Below the pieces are notes generated by a model. It was not told where the DNA came from, ran no database searches, and was given only the letters and a program-made list of their open reading frames with translations. The position numbers and the translations under genes were made by a program. A stretch of DNA of 20,000 nt from IMG/VR virus record IMGVR_UViG_3300018494_004239, one strand, 5' to 3'. Origin of the DNA: an uncultured virus (IMG/VR IMGVR_UViG_3300018494_004239). Lineage: Duplodnaviria > Heunggongvirae > Uroviricota > Caudoviricetes. Positions 2,428-20,000 of this stretch are shown here, in pieces (within the stretch, counting starts at the first letter, position 1; every line of letters begins with the position of its first letter).

Positions 2428-2820
2428 AGAAAAAAGCGATACAGGCGGTTACACCGTCCATATCGCTTGTACGAGTGCAACACTCGCCTTGCTTATACAT
2501 TTATGTTTATTCTTTATAGGTCTACTACAAGAATTCACAATACCTGGCAATCACTACTACAACGGTCTACATTGCCTTGTGGTTTGCCAATGCATAATCC
2601 AATACGTACGGTCTCCCGCAATATTGCCTTTTCGTTTTCCAGTGTAAAAAACTCCGTCAGAGTCCTTAAGGTGTACATCCTCGTTTCTCTATTTTTCAAA
2701 ACCACTGGTACTTATACTCTCTCGACATTTTTACTGGTTCGCAATTTCAAAATGACTTGTGATGAGAGAATCGTTTATTTAGAAACCACGTGTGCGACCA
2801 CCAGTTTCCTTCTCCGAAGT
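2428..2820 (-). ncRNA. Candidate ~390-nt structured RNA upstream of coaE (family unassigned)
   Basis: Promoter TTGACT-17-TATAAT with extended TG (2855-2827). No credible minus-strand ORF. Multiple helices, and a terminal hairpin AAGCGATA...TATCGCTT plus U-tract at 2468-2425. Confidence 0.7.
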
Positions 2821-2874
2821 ATATATATTATATCATAAAAATATTCGAAAGTCAATAGGTTATTTTGCATAAAG

Positions 2875-2909
2875 AAAGAGAACCGCATTGCGGTTCTCTT
2901 ATCTTTTTT
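2875..2909. terminator. Bidirectional intrinsic terminator
   Basis: AAGAGAACCGCA-t-TGCGGTTCTCTT with flanking A and T tracts. Confidence 0.8.
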
Positions 2910-3133: not shown

Positions 3134-3439
3134 TTAAACCTCCTCAATATTTGTGAAACCAGTGAATGTTGTGTCGCCAGCGATTTCGACATTGATGTCT
3201 TCGCTGTTTTCGAGAGTTTCTCGAAGTGTCTTGTTCAGGGTTTGTGCGATTTCTGCAATAGCAGATTTGCTGGGGATTTTTGCAGCATTCTCAATGGTAA
3301 GAGTGTTTGTGATTTCTCTTGCTACATAAGGAAGTGCATAATTTCCACAACCGCTAATCTCACCGAGCATCTTTTCGAAAGATTTATCGATGATTTTAAC
3401 TTTTACAGGTGTTACAAATACCAACTCCAAATTATACAT
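3134..3439 (-). CDS. Hypothetical protein
   Basis: 101-aa ORF with AAGGAGG RBS. Confidence 0.8.
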   Translation of the reverse strand: MYNLELVFVTPVKVKIIDKSFEKMLGEISGCGNYALPYVAREITNTLTIENAAKIPSKSAIAEIAQTLNKTLRETLENSEDINVEIAGDTTFTGFTNIEEV

Positions 3440-3510
3440 TTGACATTCCTCCTTTATTTGTTGAATATTTGTAGTTCTTATATTTTAAGTTTTTGTTTAA
3501 TTTTTTTCAA

Positions 3511-3543
3511 AAAAATATGAGCGAGATATTCTCGCTCATATTT
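3511..3543. terminator. Intrinsic terminator
   Basis: AAAATATGAGCGAGA-tat-TCTCGCTCATATTTT perfect inverted repeat. Confidence 0.85.
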
Positions 3544-3556
3544 GTGTTATATATTT

Positions 3557-5983
3557 TTACTTTACAATTTCAAAATACACATAACCGCAAAGGATGATAG
3601 AACTACCGAGTTCTTTCACATCTGTCTGCTTAAGTGCCTTGATAACATCATCAGATTCGAAGTCTTCATAAGTTGCAAGGAACTCAAGAGAAGTATTGGC
3701 CTTTGCATTCTTCTTAATATATGCTTCGAGTTCTGCTTCGGTTGTAAGAGTGCAATCCTTATATTTCGAATATTGAGTGCTGGAACTTACATACTTACCC
3801 TTTTCATCCTGTGTATAGAAAAGTTCATCTTCGAAATAACCAAGGGCAGTAGCAATTTGGTCGGGGTTTTCATACATAAAGTCCTTAATACCAAGAGACT
3901 TCTCGTTGTTTGTGACATCGACTACAAACCATTCGTTACCAATCTTGACCTTATTCCATGCATGAGGGAGATAACCCAACATATCGCCAGTTACCATAAT
4001 GCATTCGACGCCAGCAAGTTCGCATAGATAATCGAAAGTATATGCATAACTTTGACATACGCCGACTTTCTTAACGAGAATGCCATAGGTGGAAAAGGAA
4101 TCACGATATTTATCATCAACCTTCTTGAAGTTGTTCTTTTCGGCATTTTCGAGTGCGGCATCATCATAACTTGTATTTGCTTCAAGGTAACTGTAGATTG
4201 CACGACGCTTTGCGGCATCGTCCATGTCTTTTGTAATAATTGTTTCAATAACCTTTTTGCCTTCTGCCATAATTTCGTTTTGGCGAGAAACCATCTCATC
4301 GACGGTGTATTCGTACTTAACAACGAGTGTCATAGTACCATAGTCATAACCATATTGCTTAACTCCGAGGATGAGGGGGTTTTGATAGATTACTTCACAA
4401 AGGACATCGGTAAGAATAGACCAGTTCTGAATTTCGGGGAATGCTGCGATAGAAATTTCTTCTTTACCAGCAATCATACTGCGAGCAAGATATTCTTCTG
4501 CAGCAGAACTTGCATTAACAACTACACCATCTGCAACCTGCACCGTTTCTTTATTCGCTTCTTCAAGAACCTTTTCGGTATTTTCAACCTGCTGTTCTAC
4601 AACCGTCTTTTCGGTAGAAGGTTCTGGGTCGGGGTTGTCTGGTGTGGAGGGTTCGTCTGGTTTTGCAGGTTCGTCGGGTTCATTAGGTTCGACTGGAGGT
4701 GTCACATCAGCGGGTGGCATAGGAGCAATATCCTTGTCGGAAGTTTTTCCATCATTAACAGTTGGGACATTTGTAGGAGCATTTTGAGGAATATTATTTT
4801 CTACCTCTACAAAACCACCGATTTCGTCAGATGCCTTGTCTTCTGTTTTTACATTTTCTGCACCAGACTTAACTGTTACATAACCGACAATCGAAGTACC
4901 ATCAATACGATAGGTTACTGCTGTACTACCTGCCTTTGTTTCGTAAGTTACACCGTGGGACTTTGTGGTACCATCAACATAAAGAATGTTGACAGTTTGA
5001 GGAAGGTCATCGGCGGAATCATAACTGTTGGCGAGCAAAGATGTGCCTTTTGCAAATTCTGCAGGAAGCGACAAACCATAAGTTGCTACACCAACAGAAA
5101 ACAAGGATTCTTTTCCATCTACAACAGCAGTAACATAGTATTCGCCGTTTACACCTTGGTTCTGATAACTTGTAATATAACCGCCAATAACATCTTCACT
5201 TGCAAGTTTAGATTGACCGCCCTTGCCATCGTTCATCCAATCATTGTAAGAGAATGTGTCTGCACTCACTTCTGCTTCGAGACGAGGGAAGTTACCAACA
5301 TATGCTTCTTCCTTACCCTTTGGAGGAATATTTGTAGTTTCGAGCAATTTGATTACACTTCTCTGATAAATCTTATAAGAGGTCGCTCCTTCAACCTTGG
5401 TCCAAGTGAGGGTAAAATTGCCATCTTTAACTTCGTACCCTACATTGGGAATTTCGGCAGGAGACTTAATAGACATAGGAACAATTACGGGTTCATCCAA
5501 CTTTGTTTCTGTTTCTGCATTAATATCGTAATTGAACTTGATGTAATAAGTGGATACATTGCCCCAAAGGCCTTGTGTTTTGCTGTCTGCAAGAGGTGCC
5601 ATAATCGGTCTTACTTCATAAGTCTTTGGACCAGACGGCATGTAAGAACTTGGAGACCACATAAGTGCTACTTCGCTTTCCTTGAGACACTTTTCGTCAG
5701 TATGAATAGAAAATACATCTCTTTCATTGGTTGGAGTATACTTCAAGGAAATTGCTAACTGCTCATTCGGGTCAAGATTGTAAAGAGGAAGAATCTTACC
5801 CTTGTCAGTTTCGCCATACTTTTGCTTTAACTGTGTAATAGTCATTGTACTTCCGTGGAGAGAAGTTTGACCATTTTCATTGGGTTTCGTGCCTTCTGTG
5901 GGGTCGTTCTTATTCGAAGAACATCCAGCAAACATTCCAAGCACAAGAATGATTGCCAGAATAAGAGATAGTGCCTTTTTCAT
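3557..5983 (-). CDS. Lipoprotein with FN3-like region, Pro-rich linker and C-terminal transglutaminase-like (Cys-His-Asp) domain
   Basis: Signal peptide with lipobox FAGC; LTWTKVEGATSYKIY (FN3-like); PPVEPNEPDEPAKPDEP linker; GVCQSYA, HAWN and VDVT triad motifs. Confidence 0.88.
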   Translation of the reverse strand: MKKALSLILAIILVLGMFAGCSSNKNDPTEGTKPNENGQTSLHGSTMTITQLKQKYGETDKGKILPLYNLDPNEQLAISLKYTPTNERDVFSIHTDEKCLKESEVALMWSPSSYMPSGPKTYEVRPIMAPLADSKTQGLWGNVSTYYIKFNYDINAETETKLDEPVIVPMSIKSPAEIPNVGYEVKDGNFTLTWTKVEGATSYKIYQRSVIKLLETTNIPPKGKEEAYVGNFPRLEAEVSADTFSYNDWMNDGKGGQSKLASEDVIGGYITSYQNQGVNGEYYVTAVVDGKESLFSVGVATYGLSLPAEFAKGTSLLANSYDSADDLPQTVNILYVDGTTKSHGVTYETKAGSTAVTYRIDGTSIVGYVTVKSGAENVKTEDKASDEIGGFVEVENNIPQNAPTNVPTVNDGKTSDKDIAPMPPADVTPPVEPNEPDEPAKPDEPSTPDNPDPEPSTEKTVVEQQVENTEKVLEEANKETVQVADGVVVNASSAAEEYLARSMIAGKEEISIAAFPEIQNWSILTDVLCEVIYQNPLILGVKQYGYDYGTMTLVVKYEYTVDEMVSRQNEIMAEGKKVIETIITKDMDDAAKRRAIYSYLEANTSYDDAALENAEKNNFKKVDDKYRDSFSTYGILVKKVGVCQSYAYTFDYLCELAGVECIMVTGDMLGYLPHAWNKVKIGNEWFVVDVTNNEKSLGIKDFMYENPDQIATALGYFEDELFYTQDEKGKYVSSSTQYSKYKDCTLTTEAELEAYIKKNAKANTSLEFLATYEDFESDDVIKALKQTDVKELGSSIILCGYVYFEIVK

Positions 5984-9001: not shown

Positions 9002-9078
9002 TGGTCGGGATGACAGGACTCGAACCTGCGGCCTCATGGTCCCAAACCACGCGTTCTTCCAAACTGAACTACATCCCG
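9002..9078 (-). tRNA. tRNA-Pro(UGG)
   Basis: Full cloverleaf CGGGATG...CGTGG-TTTGGGA-CCATG...GGTTCGAGTCC...CATCCCG-ACCA. Own promoter TTGACA-17-TATAAT (9120-9092) and a terminator near 8975-8996. Confidence 0.97.
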
Positions 9079-9792: not shown

Positions 9793-10386
9793 TTAGATGA
9801 GAATTGCATCCTCATGGAAGATGGTTTGCCCAGCATTTTGCATTACCTGCTCAAAACCGAATTTTCTGCAAAAATCATTTGGAACATTTAACATAAAGTC
9901 TCCGATGTTGAAACAATCGCCATTGTCGGCGAGAACACGCTTGCCATCTTCGGTGGTTACAAATTCTGCACTTGCCTTTTTGATTGCATCTTCCATATCA
10001 AAATTTGCATCCTCGGAGGTTTGACGAAGTAAATACGGAATTACCGTAATGCCATCGGCATTCATATTGGTTGCAAATACATAATGTAGTGCTTTCAAAT
10101 TAGTATCATCGGGTTCTGCAAAGACAGTTCCGTCTTCATAGAACTCAAATTCATTGGCAAGTTCCTTCTTAATGTTTTCTCCGTTGATTTCGTGCAGATG
10201 CTGACGGAAGAACCACGGAGTTTTTAATTCTTCACATTTTGCGATGGCCTTCTGCACATCCTCTCTGTCTGCGAACAGAACAGATGCTGTTTCCTCGATG
10301 AAGGAAAGATAATCGTCGTATGCTTTTTCCTGTGCTTCTTCCGTCAACTCGTAAAAGTTATAAACGGTCATTCTGACTTCTCTCAT
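9793..10386 (-). CDS. Hypothetical protein
   Basis: 197-aa ORF whose start overlaps the upstream stop (TAATG); terminator near 9759-9786. Confidence 0.8.
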   Translation of the reverse strand: MREVRMTVYNFYELTEEAQEKAYDDYLSFIEETASVLFADREDVQKAIAKCEELKTPWFFRQHLHEINGENIKKELANEFEFYEDGTVFAEPDDTNLKALHYVFATNMNADGITVIPYLLRQTSEDANFDMEDAIKKASAEFVTTEDGKRVLADNGDCFNIGDFMLNVPNDFCRKFGFEQVMQNAGQTIFHEDAILI

Positions 10387-11195
10387 TATCCTTCACACTC
10401 CTCATACATTTCGAAAATCTTTTTGATGTGGTTTTTATCCATGCTCTTACCTGCGGTATTGAGCATAAGGAAATATCTCAAAAGTTCTTTCTTGCTGGAC
10501 TTGGAAACCTCTGCAACAGCAATACACTTATCGCAGAACCAGTTCTGGTCTCTTACGGAAAGGTCATTGAAATACTTTCCCTTGTAGGGGAATCGGTTCT
10601 CGTAGTAGTCCAAGATTGCACGCAATCTCTGCTTTCCATCAAGAATTTCATAGAGATATTCGTCGCCGTAATCGTTGTGGACAAAGACGAACTTACCGAT
10701 ATCGATGTTGGAAAAAATGGAATCTACAAGTGCAACCTTGTCTTCCAATGTCCAACAATAATCTCTCTGATATTCGGGGTCCATATCTGTGCCGAAGAAA
10801 TACACATTTCCGAACAGAGAACCCAAACTTCTTTGGGAGAAGGACAGATGGATATTATCGTTCTTGATGAGAGATTCTGTATTGGTGGTCTTGGGACGAA
10901 CATCCATCCACCATGCATATCTCTCTTGTCCATCTTCATAGGTGATAATTTCTTCGTATTTGCCGTTCACATACTGCTTGTTCTTGATTTCGGCAGAATA
11001 CCCCAAGAGGTACAGTTTGCCATCAGCAAGAACTTCCTTGATAAAAACCTTTGCGAGATGACCAATGGCAACTTGGTCACCGACATTGAATCTGTAAGTG
11101 GGTTCGGGAATAAACTTCATTCGAGAAAGCCTATCCTTCAAATTACTTGCGAGAATCTCTTCTCTTGTAGGGGGTGCAGTCTTTTTTCTTGCCAT
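10386..11195 (-). CDS. DUF262 (ParB/Srx-fold, GmrS-like) domain protein with N-terminal extension
   Basis: PEYQRDYCW, LVDSIF, EILDGKQRL and F..LN..GK are the characteristic DUF262 motifs. Confidence 0.85.
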   Translation of the reverse strand: MARKKTAPPTREEILASNLKDRLSRMKFIPEPTYRFNVGDQVAIGHLAKVFIKEVLADGKLYLLGYSAEIKNKQYVNGKYEEIITYEDGQERYAWWMDVRPKTTNTESLIKNDNIHLSFSQRSLGSLFGNVYFFGTDMDPEYQRDYCWTLEDKVALVDSIFSNIDIGKFVFVHNDYGDEYLYEILDGKQRLRAILDYYENRFPYKGKYFNDLSVRDQNWFCDKCIAVAEVSKSSKKELLRYFLMLNTAGKSMDKNHIKKIFEMYEECEG

Positions 11196-16560: not shown

Positions 16561-17973
16561 ATGCGAAAAACAAAAATAGTTTGCACAATTGGTCCTGCAA
16601 GCGATAGTGTTGAAATGTTGAGAAAATTGATGAAAAATGGTATGAATGTTGCCAGACTTAATTTTTCTCACGGTACACACGAAAGTCATCAAAAAACGAT
16701 TGATAATTTCAAAAAGGCACGAGAAATGGTTGGCGTGCCATGTGCTTTATTGCTTGATACAAAAGGTCCAGAAATCAGAATTGGTAAATTCGAGAGTGAC
16801 GAAGGCATTGAGTTATATGCGGGAAATACTTTTTCCTTAACAACAGAAAATATTATCGGGGATGACCGTATTGTCAGTGTAACATATCCCGAACTACATA
16901 CTCAAATTAAAAAAGGGCAAAAAGTTTTAATTGATGACGGTCGTATTGAACTTATCGTTAAATATATTAAAGACAGGGAAATTGTTTGCGATGTTATTGT
17001 TGGTGGAAAGTTAACAAACAACAAGGGCATCAATCTTCCTAAATGTCATATTGAAATGGAATATTTGAGCGAAAAAGATAAAGCAGATATTTTATTTGGC
17101 ATCCAAAACGATATCGATTTTGTCGCCGCATCGTTTGTCCGTAATGTTGATGATGTTATAAAAATAAGAAGATTTTTAGACATTAATGGTGGTAAAAATA
17201 TCAGAATTATTTCCAAAATTGAAAATCTTGAAGGTGTAGAAAACTATGACGAGATTCTTGAAGTATCGGGTGGTATTATGGTTGCTCGTGGGGATATGGG
17301 TGTTGAAGTGGAATATGAAAAAATTCCTGGTATTCAAAAGAATTTTATCAGAAAATGCAGATGTAGTGGTAAGATGGTTATTACTGCAACACAGATGCTC
17401 GAAAGCATGACAGAAAAAACTATGCCAACGAGAGCAGAAATTACAGATGTTGCAAATGCCGTTTTTGATGGTACATCGGCAGTTATGCTATCTGGCGAAA
17501 CCGCCATGGGCAAACATCCAGTACTCGTTGTTCAGACAATGGATAAAATTGTCCGTCAAGCAGAAAAAGATAATGAGGAAATGAAAGAGTTTGTCTATGA
17601 AGTGTCGGAATTTGATAAGACAAATGCAATTTGCGATGCTGCTTGTACTACTGCGAAAGATATTGGCGCTGATGCTATTGTTGCGGTTACTCTTTCTGGT
17701 GAAACTGCAAGACTTGTATCAAAATTCAGACCAAAAGAAATGATTATTGCTGCAACACCTTCTATTAAAACTTATCACCAGTTGGCATTATCTTGGGGTG
17801 TTTGTCCAATTCTTACATCAAAGCAAACATCTGAAAGCACACTTATTGATGATGCTATTTATAGAGCAAAATCTGAAAATATCCTAAAACAGGGAGACAT
17901 TGTAGTTGTTACGGCAGGAGTACCGCTCGATATTTCTGGAACTACAAACTTGTTAAGAATTGTCAATGTATAA
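16561..17973 (+). CDS. pyk: Pyruvate kinase
   Basis: RKTKIVCTIGP, ARLNFSHG, DTKGPEIR, IISKIEN, MVARGDMGVE, ATQMLESM and AVMLSGETA motifs. Confidence 0.98.
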   Translation: MRKTKIVCTIGPASDSVEMLRKLMKNGMNVARLNFSHGTHESHQKTIDNFKKAREMVGVPCALLLDTKGPEIRIGKFESDEGIELYAGNTFSLTTENIIGDDRIVSVTYPELHTQIKKGQKVLIDDGRIELIVKYIKDREIVCDVIVGGKLTNNKGINLPKCHIEMEYLSEKDKADILFGIQNDIDFVAASFVRNVDDVIKIRRFLDINGGKNIRIISKIENLEGVENYDEILEVSGGIMVARGDMGVEVEYEKIPGIQKNFIRKCRCSGKMVITATQMLESMTEKTMPTRAEITDVANAVFDGTSAVMLSGETAMGKHPVLVVQTMDKIVRQAEKDNEEMKEFVYEVSEFDKTNAICDAACTTAKDIGADAIVAVTLSGETARLVSKFRPKEMIIAATPSIKTYHQLALSWGVCPILTSKQTSESTLIDDAIYRAKSENILKQGDIVVVTAGVPLDISGTTNLLRIVNV

Positions 17974-17978
17974 TATAG

Positions 17979-18015
17979 AAAAAAGTCCGTTGAATAATCA
18001 ACGGACTTTTCTTTT
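17979..18015. terminator. Bidirectional terminator shared by pyk and the convergent RNA operon
   Basis: AAAAGTCCGTTGA-ataa-TCAACGGACTTTT. Confidence 0.9.
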
Positions 18016-18375
18016 GGTACAAAAGGTGTGTTGCTACACCAAAGGGTCAGAGGGCACATATGGCATTGTAAGTTAGCTTTTACCGAACATTGCATCGCTT
18101 ACTTAATTCCCAGCGTCTCTCGCGTTTTGGAAACTTACCATATTACACACTACTTGTGGTCTCGCATCACACAGCGCAAGACGCTCCACAGTATTTCAAC
18201 TGCTTCCTAAACTATTGCTGTATTGTGACCGTTCTGCTTTCGTTTCCCTGTAGTTTGTACGGCGACCTCGGTTGGCCTGACCCGCCTTTTCTTGAACTCC
18301 ACGTTGCGCAAATGCAGGTTCTTCTACTCCCCACTCTTTAAAGGATGGCTACTCTTAAGCCTACCTTCCTTTTGT
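18015..18375 (-). ncRNA. 361-nt CCA-ended RNA containing a split mimic of the 23S rRNA uL11-binding domain (H43/H44)
   Basis: The 5' part GGAAGGUAGGCUUAAGAGUAGCCAUCCUUUAAAGAGU and the 3' part GUGUAGCAACACACC align without gaps to E. coli 23S 1054-1090 and 1091-1105. Closing helix ACAAAAGG/CCUUUUGU followed by ACCA. Confidence 0.85.
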
Positions 18376-18440
18376 TGGTGTGCTGGACTGGTATCGACCC
18401 AATCATGCTTTTTCGCGTCTTCCATTTAAACGACAGCACA
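18376..18440 (-). ncRNA. tRNA-like element lacking a normal anticodon arm
   Basis: GUGCUG/CAGCAC-ACCA acceptor, D-arm GUUU-AAAUGGA-AGAC, T-like arm GAUUGG-GUCGAUA-CCAGUC. The anticodon arm is reduced to GC-GAAAAA-GC. Confidence 0.65.
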
Positions 18441-18445
18441 TATTT

Positions 18446-18508
18446 GTTAGAGGCAGGTTGGGGTTTCACCAACACCGAGTTTGTATATCGAACAGTGACT
18501 CCGCCCCT
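18446..18508 (-). ncRNA. Degenerate tRNA-like element (acceptor plus T-like arm, no CCA)
   Basis: GGGGCGG/CUGCCUC 7-bp stem stacked on GUUGG-UGAAACC-CCAAC. Confidence 0.45.
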
Positions 18509-18618
18509 CGATTGCTTCGGGTTAACCACATCTTCGTTCGCGCGATACGGAGATGTTTTCTGCGGGTTATTTAAGCATTTCGCACTCGTCACAATCTCTA
18601 TTTAGGGCTACTGCCTCT

Positions 18619-18736
18619 TGGTGCATCTGGTTGGACTCGAACCAACACCGCAATTGCCAACCTGTCTTGCTTCGATATGACTTCTCGAAGTAGTTACTGG
18701 TATTTACAACCTCGTTTTCCAGCACGATACAGATAC
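18619..18736 (-). ncRNA. 118-nt tRNA-like element with a greatly extended anticodon arm
   Basis: Acceptor GUAUCUG/CAGAUGC-ACCA, D-like arm UCGU-GCUGGAAA-ACGA, canonical T arm GUUGG-UUCGAGU-CCAAC. An ~60-nt hairpin replaces the anticodon arm. Confidence 0.75.
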
Positions 18737-18741
18737 ATAAA

Positions 18742-19012
18742 AATAAAACAGTTTGTGATTTCCGCTATTTCAAGCGCCTGCGATAGTGGTAGATTATATC
18801 CATCATTTACAGCCGAGCAGTCGATACTTGGTGTTTCGCCCAAGTCTAATCTCGTTTTCGGGTTTCATTCGGTTTTCCCGACTCTTTTCCCGTCTCTCTC
18901 CATTCTTAATAAGGAGTCCCACATTTCCTTGCAGTCTCTCTGCAAGTCCTACTTGAAGTCAGTCTACTGTCGAAGCAGATGTTTCATTAAACCCTTTCGG
19001 AACTGTTTTATT
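18742..19012 (-). ncRNA. 271-nt multi-hairpin RNA closed by a perfect 12-bp helix
   Basis: Termini AAUAAAACAGUU/AACUGUUUUAUU. Internal stems CUUGCAG/CUGCAAG, ACUUGG/CCAAGU, UCGG/CCGA and UCUGCU/AGUAGA. Confidence 0.65.
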
Positions 19013-19013
19013 A

Positions 19014-19089
19014 TGGTGCCCGTGGAGGGGCTCGAACCCTCGACACCCAGATTAAAAGTCTGGTGCTCTTCCAACTGAGCTACACGAGC
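19014..19089 (-). tRNA. tRNA-Lys(UUU)
   Basis: GCTCGTG-TA-GCTCAGTTGGAAGAGC-A-CCAGA-CTTTTAA-TCTGG...GGTTCGAGCCC...CACGGGC-ACCA, 76 nt. Confidence 0.97.
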
Positions 19090-19111
19090 ATGTGTCTCAT
19101 TGACTGTCGTT

Positions 19112-19140
19112 ATTATACCACAGATAAACCTTAATGTCAA
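19112..19140 (-). promoter_or_regulatory. Perfect sigma-A promoter of the tRNA-Lys/ncRNA operon
   Basis: TTGACA (19140-19135)-17-TATAAT (19117-19112) with extended TG. Confidence 0.9.
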
Positions 19141-19236
19141 CTACTTTTTCGAAAAAAGTTAAAGAAAAAATGCACAAAATCCAATATAGAAAACATTGAA
19201 AATTGTGCATAGTTTTTAGATGTTTTTGAATAAAAC

Positions 19237-20000
19237 AACATCGCCGCATTCTCGTGACTTTAGTCGTGAGTAAGGCGATGTTTCTTATTATTCTTAAATA
19301 AAAAGGTTGCAATTGTTAAGAAAATATGTTATAATATATCTATCTTAAACAGAAAGGAAGTGCTTATTAAAGAATGAACATAACTACGAGTTATAAGGTT
19401 CAAATTGTTGGTATTAACAAAATGTTAAAACCAACCGTAAATAAATATAGAGAAGCACTCACTTTCTTAATCCCCATTATAAATAATGAGTGGGATAGTA
19501 TTTCTGCACTAAAAGGCAATCGCAAAAATAATTTGGTTGAACATCTTATCCATACGACAAAGGATAATGAGGCAAAATACCCAGAGTTCGACCAATTGTT
19601 TTACAAAATGCCAAGTTACTTTCGTAGAGGAGTCATTGCCGATGCAATCGGCATTGTATCTTCTTATAGAAGCAACTATGAAAATTGGGAAAAGAATGGC
19701 AAGATTGGCAAACCACCAAGATTGCAGACCAAACATTATAGTTGTCCAATTTTCTATAGAGATAATACTTATGAAGAAACGGATAATCCTAACATTGTTA
19801 ATCTAAAACTTTATATTAACAATGATTGGGTTTGGTATCCAGTGCATCTTCGTGCTACGGATATTAAGTATATTCGGAAGTATTGTCAAAATAAAGAGAT
19901 GTCTGCTCCAATTTTGGAGAGAAGATATAATAAATACTATTTGAGATTTGCTTTTACTGAAAAGGTCAAACTGAATGAAGTAAAAGCAGAAAACCAAAAA
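19237..20000 (+). mobile_element. IS200/IS605-family element with no tnpA before tnpB (IS1341-like), left part
   Basis: Subterminal hairpin AACATCGCC-gcatt-CTCGTGAC-ttta-GTCGTGAG-taa-GGCGATGTT (19237-19282) resembles IS200/IS605 ends. It is followed by a promoter (19307-19335) and a TnpB-like ORF. Confidence 0.7.
19374..20000 (+). CDS. tnpB: TnpB-related (IS200/IS605 accessory) protein, N-terminal part, runs off the right edge
   Basis: Not in the ORF track. Open frame MNITTSYKVQI...YREALTFLIPIINNEW...FDQLFYKMPSYFRRGVIADAIGIVSSYRSNYENW...LKLYINNDWVW...SAPILERRYNKYYLRFAF resembles Firmicutes TnpB-related proteins. The RuvC domain would lie beyond the window. Confidence 0.75.
   Translation, partial: MNITTSYKVQIVGINKMLKPTVNKYREALTFLIPIINNEWDSISALKGNRKNNLVEHLIHTTKDNEAKYPEFDQLFYKMPSYFRRGVIADAIGIVSSYRSNYENWEKNGKIGKPPRLQTKHYSCPIFYRDNTYEETDNPNIVNLKLYINNDWVWYPVHLRATDIKYIRKYCQNKEMSAPILERRYNKYYLRFAFTEKVKLNEVKAENQK

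Follow-up and report, generated by a model that had tools for sequence, protein, structure and literature searches.

The 20-kb window analysed here, the whole stretch of DNA taken from IMG/VR record IMGVR_UViG_3300018494_004239, raises the question of what an operon made only of RNAs, opening with a tRNA and closing with a module that resembles ribosomal RNA, could be for. The cluster is one RNA-only transcription unit of a gut bacterium, running from promoter to terminator and constitutive-looking, and its last module, which is 357 nt long (18375-18019) and extends to the terminator, is a member of a large family of RNAs whose other carriers are phages. This module folds as a self-closed copy of the GTPase-associated centre (GAC) of 23S rRNA, the uL11 site. 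The original prediction had called it a mimic of the uL11 domain, and the likeness goes far beyond chance given the full-length match to a covariance model, the pairing of its closing helix and of the family alignment, and the covarying tertiary contacts described below; identity with 23S rRNA itself points the same way.

Within the window, the two ends of the last module rebuild helices H42-H44. The first 35 nt are identical to real 23S rRNA at 30 of 35 positions (86%), and the likeness stops there. The module is closed by a helix of its own, P1, in which 18375-18368 pairs with 18026-18019 (ACAAAAGG/CCUUUUGU); the counterpart in a metagenome locus, L028, is UAUUGG/CCAAUA. The elements of the fold are H42, H43, the 1082-1086 mini-hairpin, H44 and the base triple 1072/1092-1099, which in the window is UUA (U18351, U18038, A18031). 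L028 carries a homologue of the whole module, 78% identical, in a different tRNA array; the arm inserted in the window copy is conserved only with this locus (81.6% identity over 244 nt), and RNAalifold on three sequences of the module found 12 pairs with compensatory changes, the arm included. A 23S rRNA gene, or a fragment of one, was considered and rejected: the module is not continuous with the rest of the large-subunit (LSU) rRNA and is closed by its own helix, and there is no LSU rRNA match at E ≤ 10 on 17700-19400. A likeness to the sarcin-ricin loop seen by eye in the arm (CGAGAGAC) was also set aside, being a plain 3-bp hairpin in the fold with no LSU match.

The family became visible through scans of viral contigs. 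Searching with the 5' motif brought up two mini versions (138 and 151 nt) that reveal the design: on the 5' side, P1 (the analogue of H42) is followed by the H43 hairpin, the junction UUUAAAG, G1087-U1090 and then GGG; on the 3' side, the insert is followed by CCC-UUU, the H44 hairpin G(Y)G-UAAU-A(R)C, ACAC and finally the other strand of P1. With the 3' motif, 38 loci were obtained; the 5' half lies upstream in 36 of them, and one more is truncated by the end of its contig. A 5'-anchored scan gave 27 loci, 16 of them on new contigs, and the model matched all 16 of these over its full length, so that the family is found on 54 viral contigs in total. Five other patterns used in the viral scans found nothing. 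The insert ranges from 26 to 294 nt across the family, the shortest being 26, 34 and 39 nt. Cultured phages carry the element unannotated, namely UNO-G1W1 (tRNA-Trp/tRNA-Arg), pf16 (tRNA-Asn/tRNA-Pro) and GAP32 (in an unannotated gap), and further phages were identified by blastn alone (Astolliot, Milchi, Aeromonas 4_4572, XacN1, XaC1 and Pd_22F). Same-strand tRNAs lie within 2.5 kb of the element in 20 of the 38 loci, and the element stands only 1-11 nt from a flanking tRNA in L033, L034, L041, L044, L046, L050, L053, L068, UNO-G1W1 and pf16. Rfam 15 contains no such family, phage members have no match to the GOLLD, ROOL, OLE, tmRNA, YrlA or L10-leader models at E ≤ 10, and full-text literature searches outside subscription journals and bioRxiv supplements turned up no account of a stand-alone phage or bacterial copy of this rRNA domain; the family is apparently undescribed. 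A subgroup of members (L034, L035, L039, L041, L044, L045, L046, L055, L056, L065, L069 and L070) has a motif at the 3' end of the insert, CACCCCG-(4-5 nt)-GGUAAGG, about 10 nt before CCCUUU, which is absent from the window arm.

The covariance model (R1) was built from 22 viral sequences, that is, the 26 with inserts of up to 140 nt minus four with an extra hairpin, and without the window, L028 and a strain syntenic with the window (L027, from a metagenome scan). It matches the window at 18018-18376 on the minus strand with 77.2 bits (E 8e-28), over model positions 1-182 of 182. The corresponding scores are 72.5 bits for L028, 128.7 and 124.8 bits for the Pseudomonas phages UNO-G1W1 and pf16 and 81.5 bits for Cronobacter phage GAP32; one real 23S rRNA scores 55.1 bits, and the range for real 23S rRNA is 42-60 bits. 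Conversely, Rfam LSU models align to family members at the GAC region. In the 151 genomes of the phylum that were searched with R1, all matches were 47-67 nt long, nearly all of them 63-67 nt as in real 23S (47 genomes), and no insert-bearing member was among them. In the family alignment (A4), 92.7% of the cells are paired as against 76.3% in shuffles, and 97 cells are changed on both sides as against 30.7 in shuffles, a level reached by none of 500 shuffles; in all slid registers pairing drops to 37-59%. P1, which the search patterns leave unconstrained, is paired in 174 of 196 cells (shuffle mean 95, maximum 115 in 1000 shuffles).

The tertiary contacts were counted among 37 regular members. 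The triple 1072/1092/1099 is CCG in 30, UUA in six (the window included) and UUG in one, and the contact 1082/1086 is UA in 25, CG in seven, AU in four and UU in one. A further 13 of the 50 distinct members were left out of these counts on account of irregular spacing or of a filter that requires G at 1055; the four omitted solely by that filter have the same triple by eye. Given that the 3' pattern asked independently for Y at 1092 and R at 1099 and left 1072 unconstrained, the correlations between these three positions were not imposed by the search. A 1998 paper reportedly deals with this triple. According to PMC2952862, the rRNA domain has a C1072/C1092 pair with a C1072-G1099 bond, and in its 1082-1086 mini-hairpin E. 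coli has U-A where H. marismortui has C-G; according to PMC6239185, binding of L11 requires the tertiary fold of the GAC domain. It is from this covariation of tertiary contacts that the fold of the copies is deduced. As a separate observation, L078, L082 and L083 have A1055 and U1104 instead of the usual G-C, so that the innermost pair of P1 adds one more compensatory change.

The unit to which the window copy belongs is laid out in Table 1.

Table 1. Elements of the RNA-only transcription unit, by position in the window
Feature	Position	Strand	Details
Sigma-70-type promoter	19140-19112	-	TTGACA-17-TATAAT, extended -10 TG; 12/12 consensus matches
tRNA-Lys	19014-19089	-	Anticodon UUU, encoded CCA; ARAGORN; Rfam tRNA 70.3 bits
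Self-closed multi-hairpin RNA domain	18741-19012	-	About 271 nt, family unassigned; closing helix of 12 bp, 19012-19001 with 18752-18741
tRNA-like module 1	18619-18736	-	118 nt; acceptor stem of 7 bp, D arm and canonical T arm with UUCGAGU loop; ends in ACCA
Module 2	18449-18618	-	170 nt; 8-bp closure AGAGGCAG/CUGCCUCU; the fourth of its four arms is a hairpin resembling a T arm; CCA absent
tRNA-like module 3	18376-18440	-	65-nt mini-cloverleaf (predicted fold) with acceptor stem, D-like arm, very small middle arm and T-like arm (loop GUCGAUA); ends in ACCA
GAC copy, 5' half	18333-18375	-	P1/H42 5' strand (18375-18368), H43 hairpin, junction UUUAAAG, G1087-U1090; U1072 = 18351
Expansion arm	18044-18332	-	283 nt inserted between rRNA positions 1090 and 1091; GGG/CCC closure
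GAC copy, 3' half	18019-18043	-	UUUG, H44 hairpin (G1091-C1100; U1092 = 18038, A1099 = 18031), ACAC, P1/H42 3' strand (18026-18019)
Intrinsic terminator	18012-17979	-	15-pair stem then T run; common to the operon and convergent pyk

The promoter and terminator enclose about 1.1 kb of the minus strand, in a cluster of 1.2 kb, and the terminator stem is also readable on the plus strand as the terminator of pyk. In this respect the original prediction stands: a consensus promoter and a terminator bracket the cluster, which opens with a real tRNA-Lys and forms a single RNA-only unit. The modules after the tRNA measure 271, 118, 170, 65 and 357 nt in that order, the tRNA-Lys lying 640 nt upstream of the GAC copy on the same strand and in the same unit. 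The prediction had also held that there is no credible open reading frame (ORF) on this strand; minus-strand ORFs of 84, 78, 58 and 52 aa do exist in the cluster, and the three that were scanned (84, 78 and 58 aa) matched no PHROG family. An Rfam scan of 17700-19400 found no family besides tRNA at E ≤ 10, and neither the cluster as a block nor any part of it matched the GOLLD, ROOL, OLE, YrlA, tmRNA or L10_leader models at that threshold, while ARAGORN found no tmRNA in the window. A blastn search of the cluster against phages and plasmids gave tRNA matches only, among the matches listed, and DNA searches of 399 genomes of one class (that of genome G001) and 401 of one order (that of G095) gave matches to the T arm and to real 23S only. 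The hits L009 and L010, both within a coding frame rich in AT, were discarded as chance matches. Directly upstream of the operon promoter, in the gap before a divergent gene at 19374, a long GC-rich hairpin at 19232-19283 (minus strand) precedes a run rich in U; it could be a terminator, or else a leader element of the divergent gene.

Among the modules between tRNA-Lys and the GAC copy, the description of the 271-nt domain as a closed RNA can be read from the sequence: its 12-bp closing helix begins 1 nt past the CCA of tRNA-Lys, and the 273-nt stretch 18741-19013 has a fold z of -4.23, with none of 200 shuffles folding as well. In module 1 an arm of about 50 nt replaces the anticodon loop. 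The acceptor, D and T arms and the ACCA end agree with the tRNA-like character originally noted; with 27.4 bits (E 0.0045, 18622-18736), however, module 1 falls just below the Rfam tRNA gathering score of 29, and it has neither a 7-nt anticodon loop nor an ARAGORN call. What had been taken for a spacer followed by two short tRNA-like modules is re-read, from predicted folds, as modules 2 and 3, the former closed by 8 bp with a fold z of -2.07, both of which fail the tRNA model (no match at E ≤ 10). The CCA of module 3 (18378-18376) does abut the first base of the last module, as can be read directly in the sequence. The tRNA likeness of modules 2 and 3, judged from folding models, is weak, and the idea of RNAs that imitate the translation apparatus holds for the last module, which copies the uL11 site, and is not supported for these two, whose likeness no model recognises. 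Neither the 271-nt domain nor modules 1-3 have a look-alike in about 70 phage loci.

Comparison with strain L027 shows that the cluster is under purifying selection and that every module is kept. In pyk, 92 of 1413 sites differ between the two strains, 84 of them at third codon positions (84/471, 18%). For the GAC module the count is 20 of 357 sites, and each of modules 1-3 has one to four differences (identities of 49/50 overlapping bases for module 1, 172/176 for module 2 and 68/69 for module 3). Divergence across the cluster is thus 2-6%, 3 to 9 times below that of the third positions of pyk. The L027 changes include compensatory ones, at 18326/18325 with 18251/18252, and variants in RNA libraries are compensatory at 18069-18073 with 18097-18101 (plus strand: T>C/A>G, A>T/T>A, G>A/C>T and G>T/C>A). 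The GC content is 0.456 inside the cluster and about 0.35 around it. The cluster is also present in RNA libraries: contigs of three libraries from three studies lie on 18002-18359 and 18746-18992 and almost none on the flanking genes, and a DNA run covers the whole region evenly. On the 271-nt domain these contigs comprise 18797-18992 in two runs and a divergent relative at 18746-18911 in the third. The stretch 18423-18706 is without RNA-contig cover, which is uninformative because the runs were contigs, and the ends of contigs of two studies at 18359 and 18992 are a weak hint at most, as assembly breaks are possible. Very deep RNA contigs of 31-59 nt at 18332-18369 are real 23S rRNA of other organisms.

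The setting of the window is cellular, among housekeeping genes: the 20 kb hold recA, coaE, ligA and pyk, each above the NCBIfam cut-off, and none of the 10 window ORFs scanned against PHROGs is a phage hallmark. A phage setting for the window is therefore not borne out by its neighbours. Metagenomes from the feces and guts of several animals, cattle and sheep among them, contain the sequence, and among species genomes the closest relatives of its pyk (at most 59% identical) have no tRNA or similar RNA after the gene. Elsewhere in the window, 9793-11195 (minus strand) encodes a 269-aa protein with a GmrSD_N domain (Pfam 2.7e-17; phrog_1583 5e-31) that abuts a 197-aa ORF without a family; the two may be a small defence pair, and a tRNA-Pro(UGG) lies nearby at 9002-9078.

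The reading preferred here, to which a probability of roughly 0.55 is given, is that the RNA-only operon yields a precursor cut at its tRNA and tRNA-like modules and that the GAC copy binds uL11 off the ribosome, either as a decoy or as a handle that carries the arm. Cutting would take place at tRNA-Lys and at the two CCA-ending modules, with RNase P acting at the 5' ends and the tRNA 3'-end enzymes on the other side, and would free two large closed domains, the 271-nt domain and the GAC copy. In phages the element is co-oriented with tRNAs in 20 of the 38 loci and often only 1-11 nt away from them; RNase P acting on the following tRNA and the 3'-end enzymes acting on the preceding one would accordingly generate its ends. 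Such tRNA punctuation, which the original prediction had put forward, is plausible and fits the close spacing of the phage members; in the window, tRNA-Lys and the two CCA-ending modules occupy the positions that the flanking tRNAs have in phages, which lends the idea support by analogy. Given that the copy keeps the fold recognised by uL11, it is proposed that it most likely binds uL11 away from the ribosome; other possible readers of the fold would be uL10-bL12, or a docking factor or toxin. The copy may then act as a decoy or as a protein-clad handle bearing the variable arm, and of the possible roles a decoy is ranked above a protein-clad scaffold for the arm, and that in turn above an anti-toxin sponge.

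Several points weigh against this reading. That modules 2 and 3 are substrates of RNase P is a guess, as both fail the tRNA model. The invariance of H44 is partly imposed by the search patterns, and the RNA libraries, being contigs, speak for presence and neither for ends nor for strand. The tips of the loops contacted by factors and thiostrepton vary: position 1067 is A in 32, G in four and U in one of the 37 members, and the loop 1094-1097 occurs in seven forms. To judge by these sequences, the variable tips argue against full functional mimicry of the factor-binding face; the pattern would fit selection on the fold and on the protein-binding face, not on contacts with translation GTPases. 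The cellular setting is unlike that of the rest of the family, whose usual place in phages or prophages is not the one found in the window; this is a habit of the family and not a structural criterion. Finally, the element has no conserved protein partner among the 92 of 135 neighbouring ORFs that were scanned, which gave assorted phage genes only, and therefore its partner is probably a host component, uL11 being the obvious candidate.

How far the binding proposal can be extended is less certain. It is suggested only tentatively that phages and at least one gut bacterium make free GAC copies, released by tRNA enzymes, that capture uL11 or a factor of the stalk base (alarmone synthetases of the RelA type or ribosome-dependent toxins) and so retune translation or blunt stress or defence, and that in this bacterium they have been domesticated as a constitutive all-RNA 'translation-mimic' toolkit. 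The working part may instead be the insert, with the GAC copy as a compact, nuclease-resistant scaffold, perhaps clad in uL11, in a family that carries diverse RNA cargoes. Inserts that vary widely in length and sequence on a nearly fixed core would be expected of such a scaffold, as would a subgroup whose inserts share a distinct motif at their 3' end and an arm that is conserved between the window and L028 (81.6%/244 nt) with compensatory changes; the scaffold nevertheless remains doubtful, given that the members with inserts of 26, 34 and 39 nt make the core alone seem enough and that no insert has an assigned role. A further possibility, raised for anticodon nucleases in the original prediction next to a takeover of host translation, is that the tRNA-like RNAs and the rRNA copy are decoys that soak up toxins attacking tRNAs, such as anticodon nucleases and CCA-modifying enzymes, or factors docking at the stalk base. 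tRNA-Lys(UUU) is a classic target of anticodon nucleases, and the operon starts with this tRNA, two of its tRNA-like modules end in CCA and the family occurs in phage tRNA islands. This scenario is unlikely: housekeeping genes surround the locus, which is part of a bacterial chromosome, the tRNA-like modules lack an anticodon loop that could be cut, and no defence or anti-defence gene is consistently near the element among the 92 of 135 flanking ORFs scanned. Nor is any toxin that targets H42-H44 known, to our knowledge.

Two further readings fare worse. A dead tRNA array with a stray 23S fragment, transcribed by chance, would fit the tRNA-like pieces that lack anticodons and the 35 nt with 86% identity to real 23S. 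The low divergence relative to the third positions of pyk (3 to 9 times lower), however, rules out decaying relics, and the raised GC content, the compensatory changes, and an rRNA-like part that is self-closed by P1 and recurs in a covarying family on 54 viral contigs leave this reading with next to no probability; in our view, strain divergence, P1 pairing and the covariation in A4 refute it. That the element is a divergent member of GOLLD, ROOL, OLE, tmRNA or YrlA, or else the leader of a ribosomal-protein gene (the L10 leader, for example), is very improbable, as no match to these Rfam models at E ≤ 10 was obtained either in the window or in phage members, and as the element is followed by no ORF, only by a terminator or the next tRNA, and so is not a leader. 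It is true that GOLLD and ROOL too occur near tRNA islands and in phages (PMC5737381 and PMC12286853), that the organism comes from the guts of ruminants and other animals, and that a weak YrlA match lies beside the L028 homologue.

That match is one of several observations on the RNAs that surround family members. Just upstream of the L028 homologue, 2779-2878 (minus strand) holds a circularly permuted tRNA-like piece, with T arm, acceptor 3' strand, loop, acceptor 5' strand and D arm in that order, which matches YrlA weakly (24.7 bits, gathering score 69) and tRNA weakly (23.9 bits), and whose design recalls bacterial Y RNAs. In the same array, 3698-3794 (minus strand) gives a 97-nt match to the tRNA model (34.3 bits) without an ARAGORN call, its 'anticodon' hairpin having a loop of 3 nt by eye, and two small ORFs with good ribosome-binding sites lie between tRNAs. 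Among the viral contigs, L046 has at 3389-3517 a 129-nt tRNA-model match (48.9 bits) without an ARAGORN call, probably a split or insert-bearing tRNA, and L044 has at 3851-3922 an ARAGORN tRNA with a four-base anticodon (tttg). Within a phage array of 24 tRNAs, L053 1772-1869 scores 37.8 bits with the model for bacterial small signal recognition particle RNA (gathering score 40) and is possibly a 4.5S-like RNA. Genes of the TnpB/OrfB_IS605 type lie within about 0.5-0.7 kb of the element on two viral contigs (L035 3171-4289 and L048 3030-4169).

If the copy binds uL11 or a stalk-base factor, it would be the first RNA acting in trans for which imitation of an entire functional rRNA domain has been shown, and one of the puzzling RNAs from phage tRNA islands, which also include GOLLD, ROOL and the stable RNAs of T4 and T5, would gain a concrete, testable role. 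The family is common and has gone unannotated even in cultured phages such as pf16, UNO-G1W1 and GAP32. To the phage cases the window adds a cellular, constitutively promoted copy with signs of expression and purifying selection, as well as a second closed domain and, as possible clues to processing and cargo, a long conserved arm and tRNA-shaped companions.

Comparison with known systems places the element most closely beside the GAC of 23S rRNA itself (top of H42, H43 and H44; E. coli 1051-1108), the binding site of uL11 and thiostrepton. Structures of this small, autonomously folding domain have been solved, and thiostrepton binds it with nanomolar affinity. The copy shares its secondary structure, a near-identical sequence for 1055-1104 and the same covarying tertiary contacts; it differs in being free-standing, outside any rRNA gene and closed by its own covarying helix, in bearing an arm of 26-294 nt between 1090 and 1091, and in that its A1101 pairs with U1090. 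Imitation of a protein-binding site on rRNA has a precedent in the L10 leader. Ribosomal-protein leaders, however, are partial and act in cis upstream of their own gene, whereas the window copy is complete and self-closed, with no gene to regulate. For OLE RNA, a pocket for RpsU has been proposed (PMC12286853). According to PMC5737381 and PMC12286853, GOLLD and ROOL are large ornate RNAs of unassigned function; phages and prophages carry them, as do some sites outside prophages, and they often neighbour tRNA islands, with which they may be co-transcribed. The vicinity of tRNA islands is shared with the present family, but there is no match in sequence or structure, and neither class is reported as a copy of an rRNA domain. 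The rnaC and rnaD of T4 (species 1 and 2 RNAs) are small stable RNAs in a tRNA cluster, abutting a tRNA and with tRNA-like 3' parts; as candidate members of the family they were rejected, the best R1 score in the T4 region being 6.9 bits. With respect to the phage members of its own family, the window copy is distinguished by its place in a cellular chromosome next to pyk, by an arm that is among the longest, and by closing, as its last cistron, an operon in which tRNA-like modules and a second closed domain also occur.

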